From UHGV virus genome UHGV-0235137: a stretch of 40,033 bases of DNA; one strand, given 5' to 3'. The notes beneath the pieces are model-generated. The model saw only the letters and a list, made by a program, of their open reading frames with translations, searched no databases and was not told the origin of the DNA. Positions 8,651-39,676 of the stretch are shown in pieces. The first letter of the stretch is position 1. Every line of letters begins with the position of its first letter. The stretch is from a virus. A program made the translations under genes and the position numbers.

Positions 8651-8982
8651 TGGGAACATTAACTATTGATGGTAAGAATAAAATCCTCGCCACGCTAACC
8701 CCAACGACTATTATTTTACACAATGTAGACCCAACGGCAGACCCTACAGCAAATAAGGTTACTCAGCCAGTGGCTATTTATTTTTCTGAACCGGATAATG
8801 GCTTAATTGCCTCAGAAGACACAGTTGATATTACTGTTCCAGCTTCTGCAACGGTCTCACACTATAGCTTGTGGGATGCTAACGATAAATGCGTGGCAAC
8901 TGGTGCTCTTAGCAAACCTCAATTCTTTGCTGAAGAAGGTATCTATGTTATCTCTTCAGTCTCTGTAGATTTAAACAAATAG
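8650..8982 (+). CDS. hypothetical head-module protein
   Basis: 110-aa ORF in the same orientation, start overlaps the previous stop. Confidence 0.5.
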   Translation: MGTLTIDGKNKILATLTPTTIILHNVDPTADPTANKVTQPVAIYFSEPDNGLIASEDTVDITVPASATVSHYSLWDANDKCVATGALSKPQFFAEEGIYVISSVSVDLNK

Positions 8983-8993
8983 GGTGAGTAAAA

Positions 8994-10340
8994 ATGAGTT
9001 CGAATATCTTCAGACTTGCTGATAGATTATTCAACCAACCTTTACTAGCCACTGAATCATTAGCTCACTCAGCAGCAACTTATGTGAATAACAGATTGCT
9101 GGGTGATGTCCAAGCAGCAGTAAACTTTGATACCCCAAAAGGTGATGCAAGAAGTCTTTTAAAAGTAAAAGATGATATTGCTATTATCCCTATTATGGGT
9201 GGCTTAACCCATCGTATGACATTCATTGATGCAATGTGCACAGGTGGTTTAAGTTCTTATGAAGGTTTACGCAGAGGCTTTGACGAAGCTTTAGCAGATG
9301 AGTCAATTAAGACTATTGTTCTGCACATTGATTCTGGTGGTGGTGAAGCTTCAGGTTGCTTTGAATTAGCACGTCACATTATGGCTTCAAGAGGCCAAAA
9401 GAAAATTATTGCTTATGTAGATGAGTTCGCTTGTTCCGCTGCATATGCTCTTGCATCTTCTGCTGAAGAAATTATTGCATCACCAGATGCAGATGTTGGT
9501 TCTATCGGTGTAATCATGGTTCATCAGGAATTAACTAAGGCATTTGAAAAGAATGGCGTAACAATTAACGTCATCAAAGCTGGTGAGTTTAAAGGTATGG
9601 GTTCACCATTCCAAGCACTTTCAGAAGAAAGCAAAGAAAGACTTCAAAAGAGAATTAATGATACCTACACAACCTTTACAGGTTTTGTAGCTGAATCTCG
9701 TAATCTCTCTGAAGAAGCTGTAAAGAATACTGAGGCGAATGTTTATTCTGCTCAGGAAGCTCTTGAACTTGGTTTAATTAACTCAATCATGTCTCAAGAT
9801 GATTTCTTAAATTACTTACAAGGTTCTGAAGAGGCTCCTGTAAGTTTAAACGTTAACAATTCAGGTGAAGAAATGACTGAACAAGAAAAGCAAGAACTAG
9901 AAGCTTTGCGTCTTCAGGTTGCTCAAATGAAAGCTAAAGAACAGGAAGCTGCTTTGTCAGATTTGACTAATAAGATTTCTGCTTCTGCTGAAGCTTTTGG
10001 ATTTGATGCAAAAGAAGCTGCAATGACTATTTTAGGTGCTGGTCTTGATAACCCTCTGAGTGTTCTGTTTATGAATGCTATGGAAGGTGCTAACCAGAAA
10101 CTTAATGAAACTATCGCATCCCATGCTTCTGCAATGGAAGAAAAAGAATCAGAAATTACCAAGCTGAAAGAAACTGCTGGTGCTGTTCTTGAACATTCCA
10201 ACGCTATGGAAGAAGTGGGTAATGACGGCGAAGCTGATTTGGTTGAAGAAGAAAAAGAACCAGCTAAGAATGCTTCCGAAGACACCGCTGAACAACGCAA
10301 ACTGGCTCTCCAGAATGCTCTAAAATCTCTTATTAAATAA
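8994..10340 (+). CDS. prohead protease (S49/ClpP-like, lambda C-like) fused to a coiled-coil scaffold-like C-terminal region
   Basis: N-terminal region with glycine-rich and ...CSAAYALAS... serine motif resembling SppA/S49 peptidases; Glu/Ala/Lys-rich C-terminal half; sits between portal and capsid genes. Confidence 0.65.
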   Translation: MSSNIFRLADRLFNQPLLATESLAHSAATYVNNRLLGDVQAAVNFDTPKGDARSLLKVKDDIAIIPIMGGLTHRMTFIDAMCTGGLSSYEGLRRGFDEALADESIKTIVLHIDSGGGEASGCFELARHIMASRGQKKIIAYVDEFACSAAYALASSAEEIIASPDADVGSIGVIMVHQELTKAFEKNGVTINVIKAGEFKGMGSPFQALSEESKERLQKRINDTYTTFTGFVAESRNLSEEAVKNTEANVYSAQEALELGLINSIMSQDDFLNYLQGSEEAPVSLNVNNSGEEMTEQEKQELEALRLQVAQMKAKEQEAALSDLTNKISASAEAFGFDAKEAAMTILGAGLDNPLSVLFMNAMEGANQKLNETIASHASAMEEKESEITKLKETAGAVLEHSNAMEEVGNDGEADLVEEEKEPAKNASEDTAEQRKLALQNALKSLIK

Positions 10341-30908: not shown

Positions 30909-31208
30909 TTAATCTGCCAGCCTTAAATTAAAATTAACACCAAATTTTTCGCATACTTCCAACATAAACTCAAGAGAGACATTACCAGTGAGATTGATTA
31001 TGTTGGATACACGAGCCTGAGAGATACCACAAATTTTAGCAACTTGCTCTTGAGAAAGACCTCTGGATTTAATCTCTCTCTTAAAACGATGTGCAACGAA
31101 ATCTCTCATTTCGTCTACATCCATTGGACAAATATAACTCTCCATTTCAGCCTCTCTGTCAGCCTCCCAATCATCTTGTGGAGCATAAGGGTCAAAAGTC
31201 TCATTCAT
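30909..31208 (-). CDS. helix-turn-helix DNA-binding protein (XRE/Cro-like regulator)
   Basis: LSQEQVAKICGISQARVSNIIN HTH segment; ATG at 31208 overlaps the upstream stop in ATGAATGA; ORF-track TTG extension to 31238 rejected. Confidence 0.65.
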   Translation of the reverse strand: MNETFDPYAPQDDWEADREAEMESYICPMDVDEMRDFVAHRFKREIKSRGLSQEQVAKICGISQARVSNIINLTGNVSLEFMLEVCEKFGVNFNLRLAD

Positions 31209-31413
31209 CTTTCTTCTTCCGTTTACGTGAAGTGTCAATCAATGAATCTATGTTTGTAGCCCTAACCTTTTCACGTTCATCGTTAAGATAATCGTCAAGA
31301 ACTTTTTCAATCTGTGAATCATCTTGACAGATAACTGTAAAGACTGTAAAGCCGTCTGTATCGTCAATTATCTTACCATAGCCGCTTCTGGGATGTAACT
31401 TTTTAAGAGCCAT
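31201..31413 (-). CDS. hypothetical small basic protein
   Basis: 70-aa ORF translationally coupled to the HTH gene. Confidence 0.5.
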   Translation of the reverse strand: MALKKLHPRSGYGKIIDDTDGFTVFTVICQDDSQIEKVLDDYLNDEREKVRATNIDSLIDTSRKRKKKDE

Positions 31414-31723: not shown

Positions 31724-31841
31724 ATTTGGGAGTTCTGTTGCATTGACTGTAAATTCATTGACATAACCATTGCAGCAGCTAATAAAATCTTTTTCATAAT
31801 GACCTCAAAGCTATATTAAATTTTGTATTACATTGGATATA

Positions 31842-31871
31842 AAAATAAGCTATAACACCTGACTTGTCAAC
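31842..31871 (-). promoter_or_regulatory. possible leftward sigma70-type promoter overlapped by an 11-bp inverted repeat (operator-like)
   Basis: minus-strand TTGACA (plus 31865-31870), about 17-bp spacer, TATTTT; inverted repeat aataagctata (31844-31854) / tatagcttatt (31878-31888). Confidence 0.35.
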
Positions 31872-32229
31872 AGATTTTATAGCTTATTTTGGCAGATTTT
31901 TTATAAGGATACTGCCATCCTTCCATACCAGACCACACCATGCAAAACCAGACTTCACATCACCCTACCGTGCAATACATCACTTAAAAACCCTCTTAGA
32001 AGACTCTTAAGTGATGCTGGTGAGTACACGTTGGTTTATGCTGCTCAGTATACTCACCAAATTTTCTATGTCAACAACTTTATATAAAAGCCCTGATAGC
32101 TATATGTGTTACAAAACAAAAGATTGTGAACAAAACACCCATTGCAAAGGATGTGTTCAAAAGTTTACTTGTGATGTAAGACAATACAAAGACAACTAAT
32201 GCAAACAGAATGATTGTGCTTAACATAGT

Positions 32230-34970: not shown

Positions 34971-35483
34971 TCAACTTAGTTTTGCAAACTCTCCGTGGAG
35001 TTTCATAGCAGCTTCACAGTAAGCTTTATGGGCTTCTTCTTCTGTTATGTATGTCCCTATATGCACTGTCTTGCCATTATGGTTAACCTGTGCTTTCCAC
35101 TTACCAGATTTGCTTCTACTTGTACCTTTCAAGTTTTTTGATGTTCTAGGTTGTCCCCTATTAGACATGTTCTGTTCTTTTGTGGCCTCTCTAAGATTGT
35201 TCCAAGCATTATTCAAACCATCTCCATCTTTGTGGTCAATGTGTTTATCAGGCCACTTACCTGTCATCCAGAACCAAGCAATTCGGTGATTACCTGTTCT
35301 GTATCCTAGAATCTGTGTGTGCATATACACACCAGACCTTGTGCGCTTGATTGCTCCGGCTTTGCTTCCAATAACCACTCTACTACTATGTGGAGGTCTT
35401 CCAATCCATGTTAAGACCCCTGTTTCGGGGTCATAGTCTAACCAAGATTTTAACTGTTCATGTGTGAATCCACAATCCCGCAT
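34971..35483 (-). CDS. HNH homing endonuclease with AP2-like DNA-binding domain
   Basis: HIDHKDGDGLNNAWNNLREAT HNH motif; C-terminal GKWKAQV...HIGTY...EEAHKAY AP2-like segment; directly downstream of the polymerase gene. Confidence 0.8.
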   Translation of the reverse strand: MRDCGFTHEQLKSWLDYDPETGVLTWIGRPPHSSRVVIGSKAGAIKRTRSGVYMHTQILGYRTGNHRIAWFWMTGKWPDKHIDHKDGDGLNNAWNNLREATKEQNMSNRGQPRTSKNLKGTSRSKSGKWKAQVNHNGKTVHIGTYITEEEAHKAYCEAAMKLHGEFAKLS

Positions 35484-38182
35484 CAGTGTACCTCATACCA
35501 CGATTTACCAACCTTACCAGTACCTGTAACAAGCGTTTCTTTCTTAAGACCTAAGTTCTTAGAAGCTTGTCCATAATACCAGTCAGTAACTGCTTTCACA
35601 TCTGCCGTCATACTTTCTGGACATTCCCAACTCGTCTCATCGTGATATGCGCAGAGCAAACGAGCACCAATAGCTGGTTGACGACCATTCAACTTCATCA
35701 AACCTTCGTCAATCATACGACGACAAGCAAGGTTAATTGCCTCATTTTGAATCTGAGCCTCTGAACCCATCAAAAGATAGTTCAACAGTTTGTGTGGAGA
35801 TTTACACCACAACCAAGCTCCAGCAACCTTTACAAAACCACCTTTAGAGATTGCAGCAGTCTTACCAAACACCTCTTCAAGTGCCTTCTTAGTTGCTTTG
35901 TAGTCAGCTTCCAAGTCATCTAGCAGCTTCTTAATCTTAGGCAAACGGATAAAGTAAGTCTGCTTAGTCAGTGCACCTTCCTGAGTAGTTGCAGCTTTAA
36001 TCGTCTTAGCAAACTTCTCATCACCTGCACCGAACAGCAGTGCATAGATACCATTCTTAGCTTTCTTACGACCCTTGCTAATCTCATGGAGAAGGTTCTC
36101 ATCCTGAGTAGCTCGACAAGTCAAGATATCCTGCTCATCATTCAAGCTAAAGTAAATACTGTTCAGTGTGTGTGCATCAGTCCCTGAATAGACAACGTAA
36201 AGGTCGTTCTCAGAGTCATAGCGAAGGTACTTATCAATCTCTGGGTTGAGGTACTCATCAAAGTGTTTGCAGTAATAGCGTCCATCTTCTTGACGAATAA
36301 ACTCAATCTCTTCTTTACCTTGCGTTACCGCTTTGGTGAAGTCTTTGTCACCCATAAAGTTACAAAGAAGAACTAGCTGGGCTGAGTTCATGTCTACAGA
36401 GACAACGTTAGTACCTTCTTCACAAATCCACACTGCCCTCATTGGTTCCCCATAGACAGCAGCACCAGACGGTACGTTTACAATACCATATTGTGTCATA
36501 CGTCCAGTTGAAGTACCAAACACCATTGCACCAGCACTAAGGCGACCATCAGGACGAATCTGGTTCAACCAACCTTTTTCATCATCCTTTGAGTTCTCAA
36601 TAGTTCTGCGTCGGTGCATCAAAGTATAGTACTTAGCAATTTTCTGTCCAAGCTCACCTTCAATCGTATCATAAGATGACTCAGTAAGTTTTGGTGAAGT
36701 ACGGATTAAGCAAGGTTCAAGCAAATCTGTGTACTTCTTAACAGACCAGTTATGCTCAATGTACTGGACACCTTCATGTTCAACATAACTCAAACCACAC
36801 CGTTCAACCATCTCCTGCCATTTAGGATGCTTTGTAATCATCTTTTTGTTGTCTTTGAAGCGACAAACCTTAACAGGACGACCATCAGAGTCTTTCTTAT
36901 AGTTCCAGTCATCTGGAATCCAACCAACTGATTTCAAGTAGTCTTTAACAACTGCTACCTGAGTCATACGAGAAACTTCGAACTCAATTGGTGTATATGG
37001 TGCATCAATCAAACCTGTGTAGCGACTTGACTCAAGTTCAAAGTGGTTAACAACATGACTGTTATAGTACTTCACAGTTTTAACTGTTTTTACTGGCTTC
37101 CAGTCTTTGCATTTCTTACCAATCTTTGCGTTCAACTCATTGCAAATTGCACGAGCATCCTTCATTGCTACAAAGCCTTCCTTGTACTCTTCACCAGTTA
37201 CAGAGTTGGTTGGTGTATAGCAATTCCGCTTTTCAATGTTAAAAATCTTGGTAGTTGGTTTACCAAATGGCTTGATTTCATATGTCTGCATCTCACCATT
37301 ACGTACCTGCTGACGATACTTTGTCTTAGGGTACTTAGTAATTCTCTTCAGTCCATCTGCATGACCGAATGCTTCAACATACTCATTCCAAGCTTTTGCA
37401 AATTCTTCTCCAGTAACTTTACCTTTGGTCTTAATAGTTGGTGGAAGGTGTGGTTCAACTTCTGAAGCAAGCTCATTAGTCAACTTGTCAAGTTCCTTTA
37501 CATGGAACTCCATAAGTTCTTTATCAGCTTTCCAACCATTAATAGCTTGTTGACTCATCCAGAAAGATGTTTCTTTAGCTCGCATGTAGGTTTCATAAGT
37601 ATCTACGCCACACTTCTTCAGCTTAAGATATTCATTATCCAGTGCACGTTTAGTTTTGGCGTTAATACGGATATCTTCCACAACACGAGTGAATATTTCT
37701 GCATTCCACACACCCCAATGTTCAATCTCTGGTTTACGGACACCAACACGAGCACCCCATGCTGCCAAGCCATGAGCACCCTTATAGCCCTTTGGAGTTG
37801 GTCTATCCATCCACTGAACACGAGACTGGATAAGAGAATCCTGAAAGAAATTACTCCACGGCTTACACTTTGGATTATCAAAGTTCCACAAATCAGGTGC
37901 AATGTGATTGAAAACCCACCAGTCATATCCCAGACCATTATGGATGCAAAGTCGTTTTGCCTTTAACGCAAACTCAACACCTTCACGCAAGCCACCCTTA
38001 ATGTACTTGGTATACTTGTGACCGAGGATAGGCTCATCTGTAAAGACCCATACAGGTGGCTCTTCATCGTCAGATTTATAGTCTGCGAAAGCCATTACGT
38101 GCACTTTAGTGAACTCAAGGAGTAAACCATCAGTTTCTGTATCACCAACTAAATGTAAGTTTTTAAAATCTACGTTTTCCAT
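35483..38182 (-). CDS. DNA polymerase, family A (Pol I / T7 gp5-like) with 3'-5' exonuclease domain
   Basis: exo motif DTETDG; motif A-like SVDMNSAQL; motif B-like KKAKNGIYALLFGAG; motif C YHDE; start set at the ATG (38182) preceded by AGGGAG. Confidence 0.9.
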   Translation of the reverse strand: MENVDFKNLHLVGDTETDGLLLEFTKVHVMAFADYKSDDEEPPVWVFTDEPILGHKYTKYIKGGLREGVEFALKAKRLCIHNGLGYDWWVFNHIAPDLWNFDNPKCKPWSNFFQDSLIQSRVQWMDRPTPKGYKGAHGLAAWGARVGVRKPEIEHWGVWNAEIFTRVVEDIRINAKTKRALDNEYLKLKKCGVDTYETYMRAKETSFWMSQQAINGWKADKELMEFHVKELDKLTNELASEVEPHLPPTIKTKGKVTGEEFAKAWNEYVEAFGHADGLKRITKYPKTKYRQQVRNGEMQTYEIKPFGKPTTKIFNIEKRNCYTPTNSVTGEEYKEGFVAMKDARAICNELNAKIGKKCKDWKPVKTVKTVKYYNSHVVNHFELESSRYTGLIDAPYTPIEFEVSRMTQVAVVKDYLKSVGWIPDDWNYKKDSDGRPVKVCRFKDNKKMITKHPKWQEMVERCGLSYVEHEGVQYIEHNWSVKKYTDLLEPCLIRTSPKLTESSYDTIEGELGQKIAKYYTLMHRRRTIENSKDDEKGWLNQIRPDGRLSAGAMVFGTSTGRMTQYGIVNVPSGAAVYGEPMRAVWICEEGTNVVSVDMNSAQLVLLCNFMGDKDFTKAVTQGKEEIEFIRQEDGRYYCKHFDEYLNPEIDKYLRYDSENDLYVVYSGTDAHTLNSIYFSLNDEQDILTCRATQDENLLHEISKGRKKAKNGIYALLFGAGDEKFAKTIKAATTQEGALTKQTYFIRLPKIKKLLDDLEADYKATKKALEEVFGKTAAISKGGFVKVAGAWLWCKSPHKLLNYLLMGSEAQIQNEAINLACRRMIDEGLMKLNGRQPAIGARLLCAYHDETSWECPESMTADVKAVTDWYYGQASKNLGLKKETLVTGTGKVGKSWYEVH

Positions 38183-38242
38183 TTTTACTCCCTCTAAAAT
38201 CATTAACCTCATACATTACTGCAAAAAATTATAAAAAGCAAG

Positions 38243-38271
38243 TTGACAATGTACTTGACAAGGTGTTAATC
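38243..38271 (+). promoter_or_regulatory. possible rightward promoter (TTGACA, 16-17 bp spacer, GTTAAT/TTAATC)
   Basis: two TTGACA hexamers at 38243 and 38255 in the divergent intergenic region. Confidence 0.35.
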
Positions 38272-38439
38272 TTTGCGAAGTGGGTTTTTACTTAAAAGGT
38301 TACTTAACAGTTTAACTATACAGATACTTTAAAACTCTTAAAAGATTATTTAATAGCTTTTAAAAAGCTTTAAAGTATAACGTATAGAATACGTTAAGAT
38401 AAAAGATTAAAACTTAATAGTTACTTAAAAGAGGCTTAC

Positions 38440-38862
38440 ATGCAGAAAATGTTTGTTCACCCAGACATAGCTGACTTTGTTAGAGCTTTGCAGAAGTTGG
38501 AAGAACTTGACATTGCTGCTCAACGGGAATATGCTCACCATCACAGGAGAATGGTTGATATACAACATGAAATAGAGTTGTCTGAAAACTATGAAGATGA
38601 CTTAAAATGCTCTGTATTTGAGCATATGAAAGATGTTGCTACAGCGAGACGTAAAGCTAAAGACACAGTTGCTTTACTTGATTCTCTTAAAAAGAGGTTG
38701 CAAAGTGGTACAGACCTGTGTAATCTAGCGTCACTGATTAACGATGTTGAGACTTCTTGGGATAGACATTACTATCCACGTTCTGAAAAGACACTTGACT
38801 TTTCTTCATCAGAAAACTTAAAATGTTCTAGAAAGAAACTTAACCAACTGAGAGAGAAATAA
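38440..38862 (+). CDS. hypothetical protein
   Basis: 140-aa ORF with GAGG RBS. Confidence 0.55.
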   Translation: MQKMFVHPDIADFVRALQKLEELDIAAQREYAHHHRRMVDIQHEIELSENYEDDLKCSVFEHMKDVATARRKAKDTVALLDSLKKRLQSGTDLCNLASLINDVETSWDRHYYPRSEKTLDFSSSENLKCSRKKLNQLREK

Positions 38863-38863
38863 T

Positions 38864-39676
38864 ATGAACACTACTGTAGACCAAATGCTTAAAGAAAAAG
38901 GTATTGACGAAGCATTCTTAATCAATGCCGTAGAAAGCATGGCTATAATTCTTCGTGGAAACAACTACACAGAACAGTTTATGCCTGCAAGCTATAACTT
39001 GCCTAAAGACAAGTCTGATAACGGTGCTTTTGCAGAGCAGGTAAATATGATGCTGTGTGACAAAACACTTGCTTTAGCATCTATTGTTGTAGGTGTTGAT
39101 GCTCTTGCAGAGTTCATTTTTTATGAGATGCAGAAAAATGACTATATTGCCATGACCTCTGAAGAAAAAGACTCGCTACTGCTCTTAGGTTATGATGAGC
39201 TAGTTAACCTATTAATTTCGTCAACGAGTGCTGTTATGGCTGCTCTTGAGAAGCGCATGGAAGAGAAGCTGTCACGATATGAAAAACTTGATTGGGGTGT
39301 AGAAGAGTTAAACCCACGAATCAAAGAGATTATCCAGCAAACTAAAGACTCTTTAGCAGAAGCTGTGAAAGATGATTCTGTAGCTGATGTAGAACCACTA
39401 CAGGTGAAAGTTGCATTGATGATTCCAGCTATCTCTATGATGATGAATATCGTTGCACTAATCCAACTTTCACAGATGATGGGTACAAGCATTGAGTTCA
39501 TTGAGAGCATGACTGGTGGTGTGAGTATGCAAGCAATCAATGATGTTTTGGTAAGCATCGGTGCTTCAATCATTGAAGAGAAGCTTCGTATTAACTTCGG
39601 CGATGATTTTGTGAAGCAAATCTCGGCTATGGCTGAAAAAGAGCACTCACAAATTACTAGTGACCAACTGCACTAA
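38864..39676 (+). CDS. hypothetical protein
   Basis: 270-aa ORF immediately downstream. Confidence 0.55.
   Translation: MNTTVDQMLKEKGIDEAFLINAVESMAIILRGNNYTEQFMPASYNLPKDKSDNGAFAEQVNMMLCDKTLALASIVVGVDALAEFIFYEMQKNDYIAMTSEEKDSLLLLGYDELVNLLISSTSAVMAALEKRMEEKLSRYEKLDWGVEELNPRIKEIIQQTKDSLAEAVKDDSVADVEPLQVKVALMIPAISMMMNIVALIQLSQMMGTSIEFIESMTGGVSMQAINDVLVSIGASIIEEKLRINFGDDFVKQISAMAEKEHSQITSDQLH

Follow-up and report, generated by a model that had tools for sequence, protein, structure and literature searches.

The closest described system is the homologous region of phage Felix O1 itself. In the genome paper of Whichard et al. (2010), divergent promoters were assumed in the spacer between genes 96 and 97, none of which was recognisable, and the temporal regulation of Felix O1 was unknown at that time (PMC3185647). 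The same paper gives another promoter, P41, as TTGACA-N15-TATAGG; as discussed below, P41 is a paralogue of the rightward promoter of the present locus. In the record of phage AYO145A (NC_028825) a plus-strand promoter feature is annotated at the same place. It corresponds to positions 38243–38272 of the window, that is, the whole stretch of 40,033 nucleotides that was analysed. Thus, the locus and its presumed promoters were already known. Neither PMC3185647 nor NC_028825 mentions the phased array presented here, how conserved it is, how unstable its duplex is or how P41 relates to P97, and these features are also undescribed in the searchable literature, which contains no start-site, footprint, expression or origin mapping for Felix O1-like phages at this region.

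Repeated sites at two promoter regions per genome, which differ between lineages, connect the locus to OL/OR of phage lambda and to the p4/p6 region of phi29. Lambda-type operators are 17-bp palindromes that overlap the promoter. In contrast to both phages, the repeated elements (boxes) found here are 8-bp direct repeats located 3' of the transcription start and cover 145 bp, and no repressor, p4-like or p6-like protein was identified. As for phi29 p6, related motifs are present at the genome ends, and binding would be helically phased. With oriF and oriG of T4 and the origins of T7 the locus shares a promoter with the most easily melted DNA right behind it, a transcriptional divergence, adjoining replisome genes and a T7-like polymerase together with a primase-helicase. 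The promoter, however, is of the host sigma-70 early type instead of being dependent on MotA or T7 RNA polymerase, and the A+T-rich part contains sequence-specific phased boxes. T4 oriE likewise combines an early host-type promoter with evenly spaced short direct repeats, whose role is undefined even in T4. This likeness is superficial because the oriE 'iterons' are coding repeats inside gene 5 with the 24-nt period of protein repeats, whereas the present array is non-coding and has an 11-bp period.

The stretch is the genome of a Felixounavirus (Felix O1-like myophage), in which the region corresponds to the intergenic spacer of genes 96 and 97 in Felix O1. Over positions 38000–38640 the sequence matches Escherichia phage vB_EcoM-Pr103Blw with 100% identity, and alignments covering at least 80% of this interval were obtained for 259 phage records. 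The minus-strand neighbour is a family A DNA polymerase with T7 DNA polymerase as the best PDB match. It heads a leftward operon that also includes ligase, an HTH regulator, DHFR and thymidylate synthase. In the preliminary description the polymerase was assumed to start at 38212. Judged by the sequence, the ATG at 38182–38180 is the most likely start instead, because the poorly conserved interval 38183–38212 contains a 1-nt indel between genera. This ATG is preceded by the ribosome-binding site (RBS) GAGGGAG (38194–38188, minus strand), and a 2700-nt polymerase gene starting at 38182 is annotated in most relatives. Consequently, the spacer extends from 38183 to 38439, between the ATG codons of the polymerase and gp97. 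Its length of 257 bp is nearly constant across relatives (257–259 bp). A 41-aa open reading frame (38109–38234) was rejected as a real gene, since it overlaps the polymerase start.

On the plus strand, gp97 (38440–38862, ATG at 38440, 140 aa) is the first gene of the rightward replication operon, which encodes a dNMP kinase, a Toprim-DnaB primase-helicase, an exonuclease and ribonucleotide reductases. Its RBS (AAGAGG, 38429–38434) overlaps the last box of the array. The protein belongs to phrog_4039, to which no function is assigned in PHROG, and its amino-acid sequence is 100% identical in most Felixounavirus records. A scan of the region revealed no terminator-like sites in the spacer. The region is best explained as the transcription control region of two divergent operons with replication and nucleotide-metabolism genes.

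The rightward promoter, P97, is located at 38243–38272 on the plus strand. The −35 hexamer TTGACA (38243–38248) is separated by 18 bp from the −10 hexamer TAATCT (38267–38272), which is extended by a TG at 38264–38265, and transcription is predicted to start at about 38279. The arrangement TTGACA-N18-TAATCT with its TGn extension thus lies within the sigma-70 spacing of 16–18 bp. With 12.2 bits in a weighted sigma-70 scan that includes an extended −10 term, P97 is the top-scoring promoter of the window. A simple promoter scan had missed it because TAATCT matches the −10 consensus at only three of six positions. At the homologous position, P97 is the best promoter of the region in Felix O1, SUSP1, pEC-M719, Sf14, Moogle, Arno162 and two Erwinia phages. 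The −10 element is TAGTCT in Moogle, and the complete homologues read TTGACA-17-TAGGCT in Arno162 and TTGACA-17-TACATT in the two Erwinia phages. Directly upstream of the −35 hexamer, the A-rich tract CAAAAAATTATAAAAAGCAAG (38222–38242, plus strand) resembles an UP element; within it, AAAAAGCAAG is invariant between genera. P97 also resembles about 24 strong non-coding promoters of the same phage, many of which have an A-rich tract such as aaaaaagttgTTGACA just upstream. Sequence and conservation therefore support the prediction of P97 as a strong rightward promoter of the host sigma-70 type and of early character.

Both TTGACA hexamers that had been noticed beforehand are present, the second one at 38255–38260 (plus strand) inside the P97 spacer. 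The accompanying idea of a promoter cluster with iterated regulator sites holds for P97, which is conserved across five Ounavirinae lineages, and for the phased motif described below. It does not extend to the second hexamer, which has no −10 element at a distance of 16–18 bp. The significance of the two hexamers results from conservation and not from counts, as bare TTGACA occurs 37 times in the window with 41 expected and is hence not above chance. The tandem pair TTGACAA-N5-TTGACAA, in contrast, is found exactly twice per genome, at P41 and P97. It is present in the examined relatives from the Felix O1 group, Suspvirus and Mooglevirus and absent from Arno162 and the Erwinia phages. The second hexamer, or the pair as a whole, may be an operator.

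For the leftward direction, the candidate polymerase promoter is TTGCTT-17-TAATGT (38213–38241, minus strand), with the −35 hexamer at 38241–38236 and the −10 hexamer at 38218–38213. Of the minus-strand candidates, it alone keeps its position in Felix O1, SUSP1, pEC-M719, Sf14 and Moogle, where it reaches 6–7 bits, and it is arranged back to back with the P97 −35 hexamer. In this region the columns ATAC..TAC.GCAA and AAAAAGCAAG are invariant, and Arno162 has a stronger back-to-back counterpart. It is therefore probable that a weak leftward promoter, with a predicted start near 38206, reads from here into the polymerase gene. The perfect minus-strand TATAAT singled out in the preliminary description does exist (38228–38233, ATTATA on the plus strand), within the A-rich tract upstream of the P97 −35 hexamer. 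It is probably not a functional −10 element, since it is specific to Felixounavirus, being replaced by TTTCAA or CTTCAA in Suspvirus and Mooglevirus, and has no usable −35: the positions 16–18 bp away read AAGTAC or AGTACA.

Between the predicted P97 start and the gp97 ATG lies a leader of about 160 nt that contains no ATG and is untranslated. About 145 bp of it are occupied by a phased array of approximately 13 units of about 11 bp (38291–38434, plus strand) with the consensus CTTAAAAG and the general form CTTWANAG. Boxes 1–4 are CTTAAAAG at 38291, CTTAACAG at 38303, CTATACAG at 38317 and CTTTAAAA at 38327. They are followed by boxes 5–8, with CTTAAAAG at 38337, TTTAATAG at 38349, CTTTTAAAAAG at 38357 and CTTTAAAG at 38368. 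Boxes 9–13 are CGTATAGA at 38381, CGTTAAGA at 38392, AAAAGATT at 38402, CTTAATAG at 38413 and a final CTTAAAAG at 38424. Four copies of the motif had been counted previously. Three of them, at 38291, 38337 and 38424, are indeed CTTAAAAG, while the copy at 38360 contains one extra A (TTAAAAAG); an exact TTAAAAG is present there in inverted orientation on the minus strand (38357–38363).

In the 160-bp leader, CTTAAAAG occurs three times compared with 0.05 expected from dinucleotide shuffles of the leader, and none of 5000 shuffles reached three copies. For CTTWANAG on the plus strand, six copies were found with 0.18 expected, a number again not reached in any of 5000 shuffles (P<2e-4). Over the whole window CTTAAAAG is present nine times (3.1 expected), and the non-coding DNA in the complete genome of the closest relative shows a 7.7-fold enrichment of this motif. 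Tandem Repeats Finder detected nothing between 38150 and 38500, because the units are too degenerate; periodicity was therefore demonstrated by Fourier analysis. Box starts and ends follow a period of 11.0 bp (P<0.001), so that the boxes face approximately the same side of the helix. A significant periodicity is seen in six lineages, the further values being 11.0 bp in Moogle, 10.75 in SUSP1, 12.0 in Arno162, 11.0 in Fifi318 and 11.25 in PM27.

The composition of the leader (77% A+T, GC 22–23%) could suggest that no specific factor is involved. The array would then be either curved, A-tract-phased DNA that acts via its shape or via nucleoid-associated host proteins, for example H-NS or Fis, or a compositional by-product of an A+T-rich spacer. 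A4 tracts do recur every 11 bp in the leader, and related short motifs with a period of 10.5–11 bp fill the terminal non-coding DNA. Dinucleotide-matched shuffles, however, never reproduce the boxes. Furthermore, the CTT and AG of the boxes are invariant between genera while the A/T core varies, the differences affecting the fourth and sixth positions of the box as well as the spacers, and shape alone does not predict the joint shift of box variants at two loci per genome that is described below. We therefore regard an explanation by composition or shape as very improbable.

A comparison of 21 distinct Felixounavirus sequences shows the leader to be locally the most conserved DNA (pi 0.005); the corresponding values are 0.036–0.038 in the coding DNA of the polymerase, 0.017 in gp97 and 0.106 in gp98. 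Between genera it is 91% identical, while the corresponding gp97 proteins share 62–75% identity. The arrays are kept downstream of the promoter in Arno162 and Kolesnikvirus, where other nucleotide similarity is lost. In every lineage compared all boxes are in sense orientation downstream of the promoter, and the first box is located at +7 to +13 (about +13 here).

The preliminary description had named recurrence of the motif at other promoters as a check, and such a recurrence was found. Across the complete genome of the closest relative, the boxes are densest at three sites, namely the leader, the terminal repeats with the adjoining non-coding DNA, and a second divergent spacer (8701–9092). 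This spacer is a paralogous module with the same A-rich tract and tandem TTGACAA pair. It contains P41 (genome position 8943, leader 8943–9000), the paralogue of P97. In both P41 and P97, ACTTAAAAGGTT is located 47–48 bp after the −35 hexamer. The two rightward leaders of Arno162 start with cctCTGAACAGttat instead, and those of Fifi318 with CT(T/G)AACAG. The box variant thus differs between lineages and matches within a genome, as one lineage-specific trans factor would predict; the sequences point to a single such factor behind the boxes at both leaders. When the terminal repeats of Moogle were compared for a leader-like box shift, their motifs proved too heterogeneous for such a shift to be judged.

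Taken together, we favour divergent promoters combined with a phased protein-binding platform that would control the early rightward promoter P97. The reasons are the fixed promoter-proximal position of the boxes, their recurrence at a paralogous promoter and the co-change of box variants within a genome. We consider this tentative reading the leading one, at somewhat short of an even chance. Transcripts from P97 would start near 38279 and traverse the untranslated leader before reaching gp97. The boxes would be sites for one sequence-specific, probably phage-encoded factor, which could fill the array cooperatively, beginning in the initially transcribed region. As infection proceeds, occupancy of the array might switch the early promoter by repression or as a roadblock, and the same factor would presumably act on the P41 leader at the other divergent region.

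Several observations weigh against such a platform. No binding factor was identified among the candidates gp97 and gp98, and 145 bp of sites exceed what simple repression needs. An operator model does not call for the conserved extreme instability of the duplex, which suits an unwinding element better, and the uniform sense orientation of the boxes is compatible with a role at the RNA level. A further point concerns an HTH_3 protein, which is missing from Erwinia and Pectobacterium phages that still have boxes.

The gene for this Cro/C1-type HTH protein (Pfam HTH_3, 5e-11) is located at 30909–31238 on the minus strand. The Felix O1, Suspvirus and Mooglevirus records that show the palindromes and the tandem TTGACAA pair also contain this gene, and these elements are limited to the clade that encodes it; at a threshold of 1e-5 no HTH_3 protein was detected in Erwinia or Pectobacterium phages. 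The protein may be a trans factor for these clade-specific elements, and the small palindromes and the TTGACAA pair may be its operators. As a box-binding factor gp97 was rejected, as it has no Pfam domain, no PDB sequence match and no match to a DNA-binding fold. Its AlphaFold model (pLDDT 72) is all-helical with a helical hairpin, and Foldseek returned no match below an E-value of 0.1. For gp98 there was no Pfam or PDB match, and its PHROG label is 'minor tail protein'.

Both palindromes mentioned in the preliminary description are present. The first, AGCTT-TTAAA-AAGCT (equivalently AGCTTTT-A-AAAAGCT; 38355–38369), is 15 nt long with a 5-bp stem and a 5-nt loop. It is located within a larger imperfect dyad (38324–38378) and is invariant between genera apart from a central A-to-G change. 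The second palindrome, TAACGTAT-AGA-ATACGTTA, spans 38378–38396 and can be written as (T)AACGTAT-AGA-ATACGTT(A). Two of its pairs change on both sides between genera with the pairing retained. These columns vary together with box 2 as well, and the pattern is therefore as compatible with a symmetric protein site or concerted evolution of the boxes as with a hairpin. A model with a long hairpin gained no greater support than the local one.

The retained pairing at 38378–38396 can also be taken as an indication that the leader acts as RNA, either in boxA/nut-like antitermination across the long operon or in the control of mRNA stability or gp97 translation. Consistent with this, the boxes are all sense-oriented downstream of the promoter in every lineage, and the last one overlaps the gp97 RBS. 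As in boxA/nut systems, a small stem-loop lies behind a promoter-proximal, sense-strand CTCTTAAAA-like element in both long rightward operons. At 38333, ACTCTTAAAAGATTA is followed after 11 nt by a 15-nt hairpin (5-bp stem, 5-nt loop), which resembles lambda nutL. Moogle and SUSP1 carry ATTCTTTAAAA, a 10/11 match to the boxA consensus GYTCTTTAANA (PMC5725501). Moreover, transcription in Felix O1 must pass many terminators by means unknown (PMC3185647).

A strict boxA can be rejected: the whole genome lacks an exact copy of the gamma-proteobacterial consensus GYTCTTTAANA, plus-strand sites in the leader differ from it at two positions at best, and boxA positions 1–3 vary between genera. Unlike in boxA/nut sites, there are many phased copies instead of one, and an arginine-rich N-like protein is not evident. 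That the 11-bp register is kept across lineages points to duplex DNA and not to RNA. Furthermore, the fold of the whole leader is not unusual (z −1.55 and −2.0), and the covariance models of Rfam 15 gave only chance-level matches (E at least 0.35), far below the gathering scores. Hence, we consider a function of the leader at the RNA level improbable.

The physical properties of the leader raise the question of an origin of replication, which the preliminary description had offered as an alternative. In the 88-kb genome of Pr103Blw the leader is the most A+T-rich and least stable segment of 100–160 bp, with a duplex free energy of −105.1 kcal/mol compared with a genome mean of −127.8 (sd 5.1). 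In the Pectobacterium phage Arno162, whose GC content is 44.5%, the homologous leader is also the genome minimum (−108.6 versus −134.8, sd 5.7), and the other divergent spacer ranks second in instability. In the Erwinia phage Fifi318 the order is reversed, with the other divergent spacer first and the homologous leader second (z 4.5). Thus, P97 is followed immediately by an A+T-rich segment that should unwind easily. From P97, host RNA polymerase might therefore transcribe into the phased array, which would serve as the DNA unwinding element of a transcription-primed origin. Opening could be achieved by a persistent RNA-DNA hybrid or be assisted by a box-binding protein, whereupon the T7-like polymerase and the primase-helicase would assemble. 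The same DNA could double as an operon leader.

Apart from the stability minimum, the position directly 3' of an early-type promoter at a transcriptional divergence is in line with such an origin, as is the location between the family A polymerase with its T7-like PDB match and the Toprim-DnaB fusion. A promoter is needed by every T7 origin (PMC8373140). The two flanks of the site show the highest coding-strand GC skew (0.140 and 0.161, compared with 0.085–0.088 elsewhere), although this skew tracks gene orientation and is inseparable from transcription. The function of the T4 unwinding element, however, is not sequence-specific, and an unwinding element therefore does not explain the invariant boxes. 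In addition, a promoter-proximal box that recurs at a fixed distance in two leaders suggests regulation, and an initiator protein was not detected: neither of the adjacent proteins gp97 and gp98 resembles initiators. Boxes of 8 bp at intervals of 11 bp are also unlike classical iterons of 17–22 bp, so that an iteron-type origin as in plasmids or lambda was rejected. Overall, the findings have made a transcription-primed origin more plausible; it is the strongest rival to the operator platform and could coexist with it, but we regard it as possible rather than likely. More doubtful still is a combined model, in which the array would be the primary origin of Ounavirinae, primed as an R-loop by host RNA polymerase. 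The approximately 13 boxes would then be bound by a phage protein that also marks the second leader and the termini, and early transcription, initiation and perhaps end processing would be coupled.

Felix O1 and its relatives are widely used in typing and biocontrol of Salmonella and E. coli. For these phages the analysis provides a conserved promoter, a cis element of about 13 boxes common to two leaders, and the signature of a least stable duplex, which makes the region a practical landmark for engineering. On the evidence of its sequence, the array is a good candidate for a regulatory switch or a replication origin of Ounavirinae. If it is an operator platform, a new phage regulon and its factor would be defined. 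Should it prove to be an origin, it would be the first one proposed for this subfamily and would illustrate the priming of a T7-like replisome by host RNA polymerase.

The start of the family A DNA polymerase gene, which heads the leftward operon on the minus strand, is annotated inconsistently among database records (38182 versus 38212 in the window). Two alternative starts are given in the record of Felix O1, while the gene is 2700 nt or 2721 nt long in other records. Sequence conservation favours the ATG at 38182 as the probable start. Directly downstream of the polymerase gene lies a homing-type endonuclease gene with HNH_3 and AP2 domains (34971-35483, minus strand). In the Erwinia phages (L033:1-463), an HNH endonuclease gene is instead inserted so that it separates the control region from the polymerase gene.

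In the rightward replication operon, the almost invariant gp97 adjoins gp98 (38864-39676), the most variable of the nearby genes (pi 0.106, with a peak of 0.24 around 39140-39240). Two promoter-like sites with high scores were found on the plus strand within the gp97 coding sequence, TTGACA-17-TATGCT at 38507-38535 (13.7 bits) and TTGACT-18-TAAAAT at 38795-38824 (12.6 bits), and these may be one reason why nucleotide diversity in gp97 is unusually low. PHROGs and many records name gp98 a 'minor tail protein'. The gene is located in the early replication operon, and a search for Pfam and PDB matches to its product returned none; the name seems to be a misannotation that has been passed on between records. 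The Felixounavirus DNA of the window is also matched by a record named Campylobacter phage A126 (MG065668.1, 43 kb; 99% identity) and by one named as a Staphylococcus phage. Both are probably contaminated or mislabelled entries.

Within the leftward operon, about 500 bp (31724-32229) contain no annotated gene, and in duplex stability this stretch is the second lowest in the window. Two strong promoter-like sites are present here on the minus strand, with -35 elements at 31870 and 32074, together with CTTAAGAG/CTAAGAG boxes. This gap could serve as a further control region, or it could encode a small RNA.

Outside the window, the closest relative, Escherichia phage vB_EcoM-Pr103Blw, has a conserved leader, ATCAACGGGGAGGGAATGACCTTCCCCACTAAATAAAGTCCTTAAACTAGGAGATTC, which is about 55 nt long, contains a hairpin and occurs six times in the right arm of the genome (L011:36941, 38503, 39366, 40588, 41153 and 42077). 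The three copies examined (36941, 38503 and 39366) have a strong promoter just upstream and a small gene downstream. The motif CAACGGGG was found eight times in non-coding and never in coding DNA.

The genome ends of Pr103Blw, likewise outside the window, are non-coding over about 1.2 kb on the left (L010:1-1212) and about 1 kb on the right (L011:42384-43421), including a 581-bp terminal repeat. They are crowded with the short motifs CTGTTAAGA, CTTGTTAGA, CTTAAAAG, CTATAAAG and CTATATAG at a period of 10.5-11 bp, and an end region with short motifs is also present in Moogle (L036:300-1470). With 80-90% identity, the terminal non-coding regions are less conserved than the untranslated P97 leader preceding gp97. 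In T7, arrays of CCTAAAG repeats adjoin the terminal repeats, and the layout of the terminal motifs in Pr103Blw and Moogle is reminiscent of these arrays.
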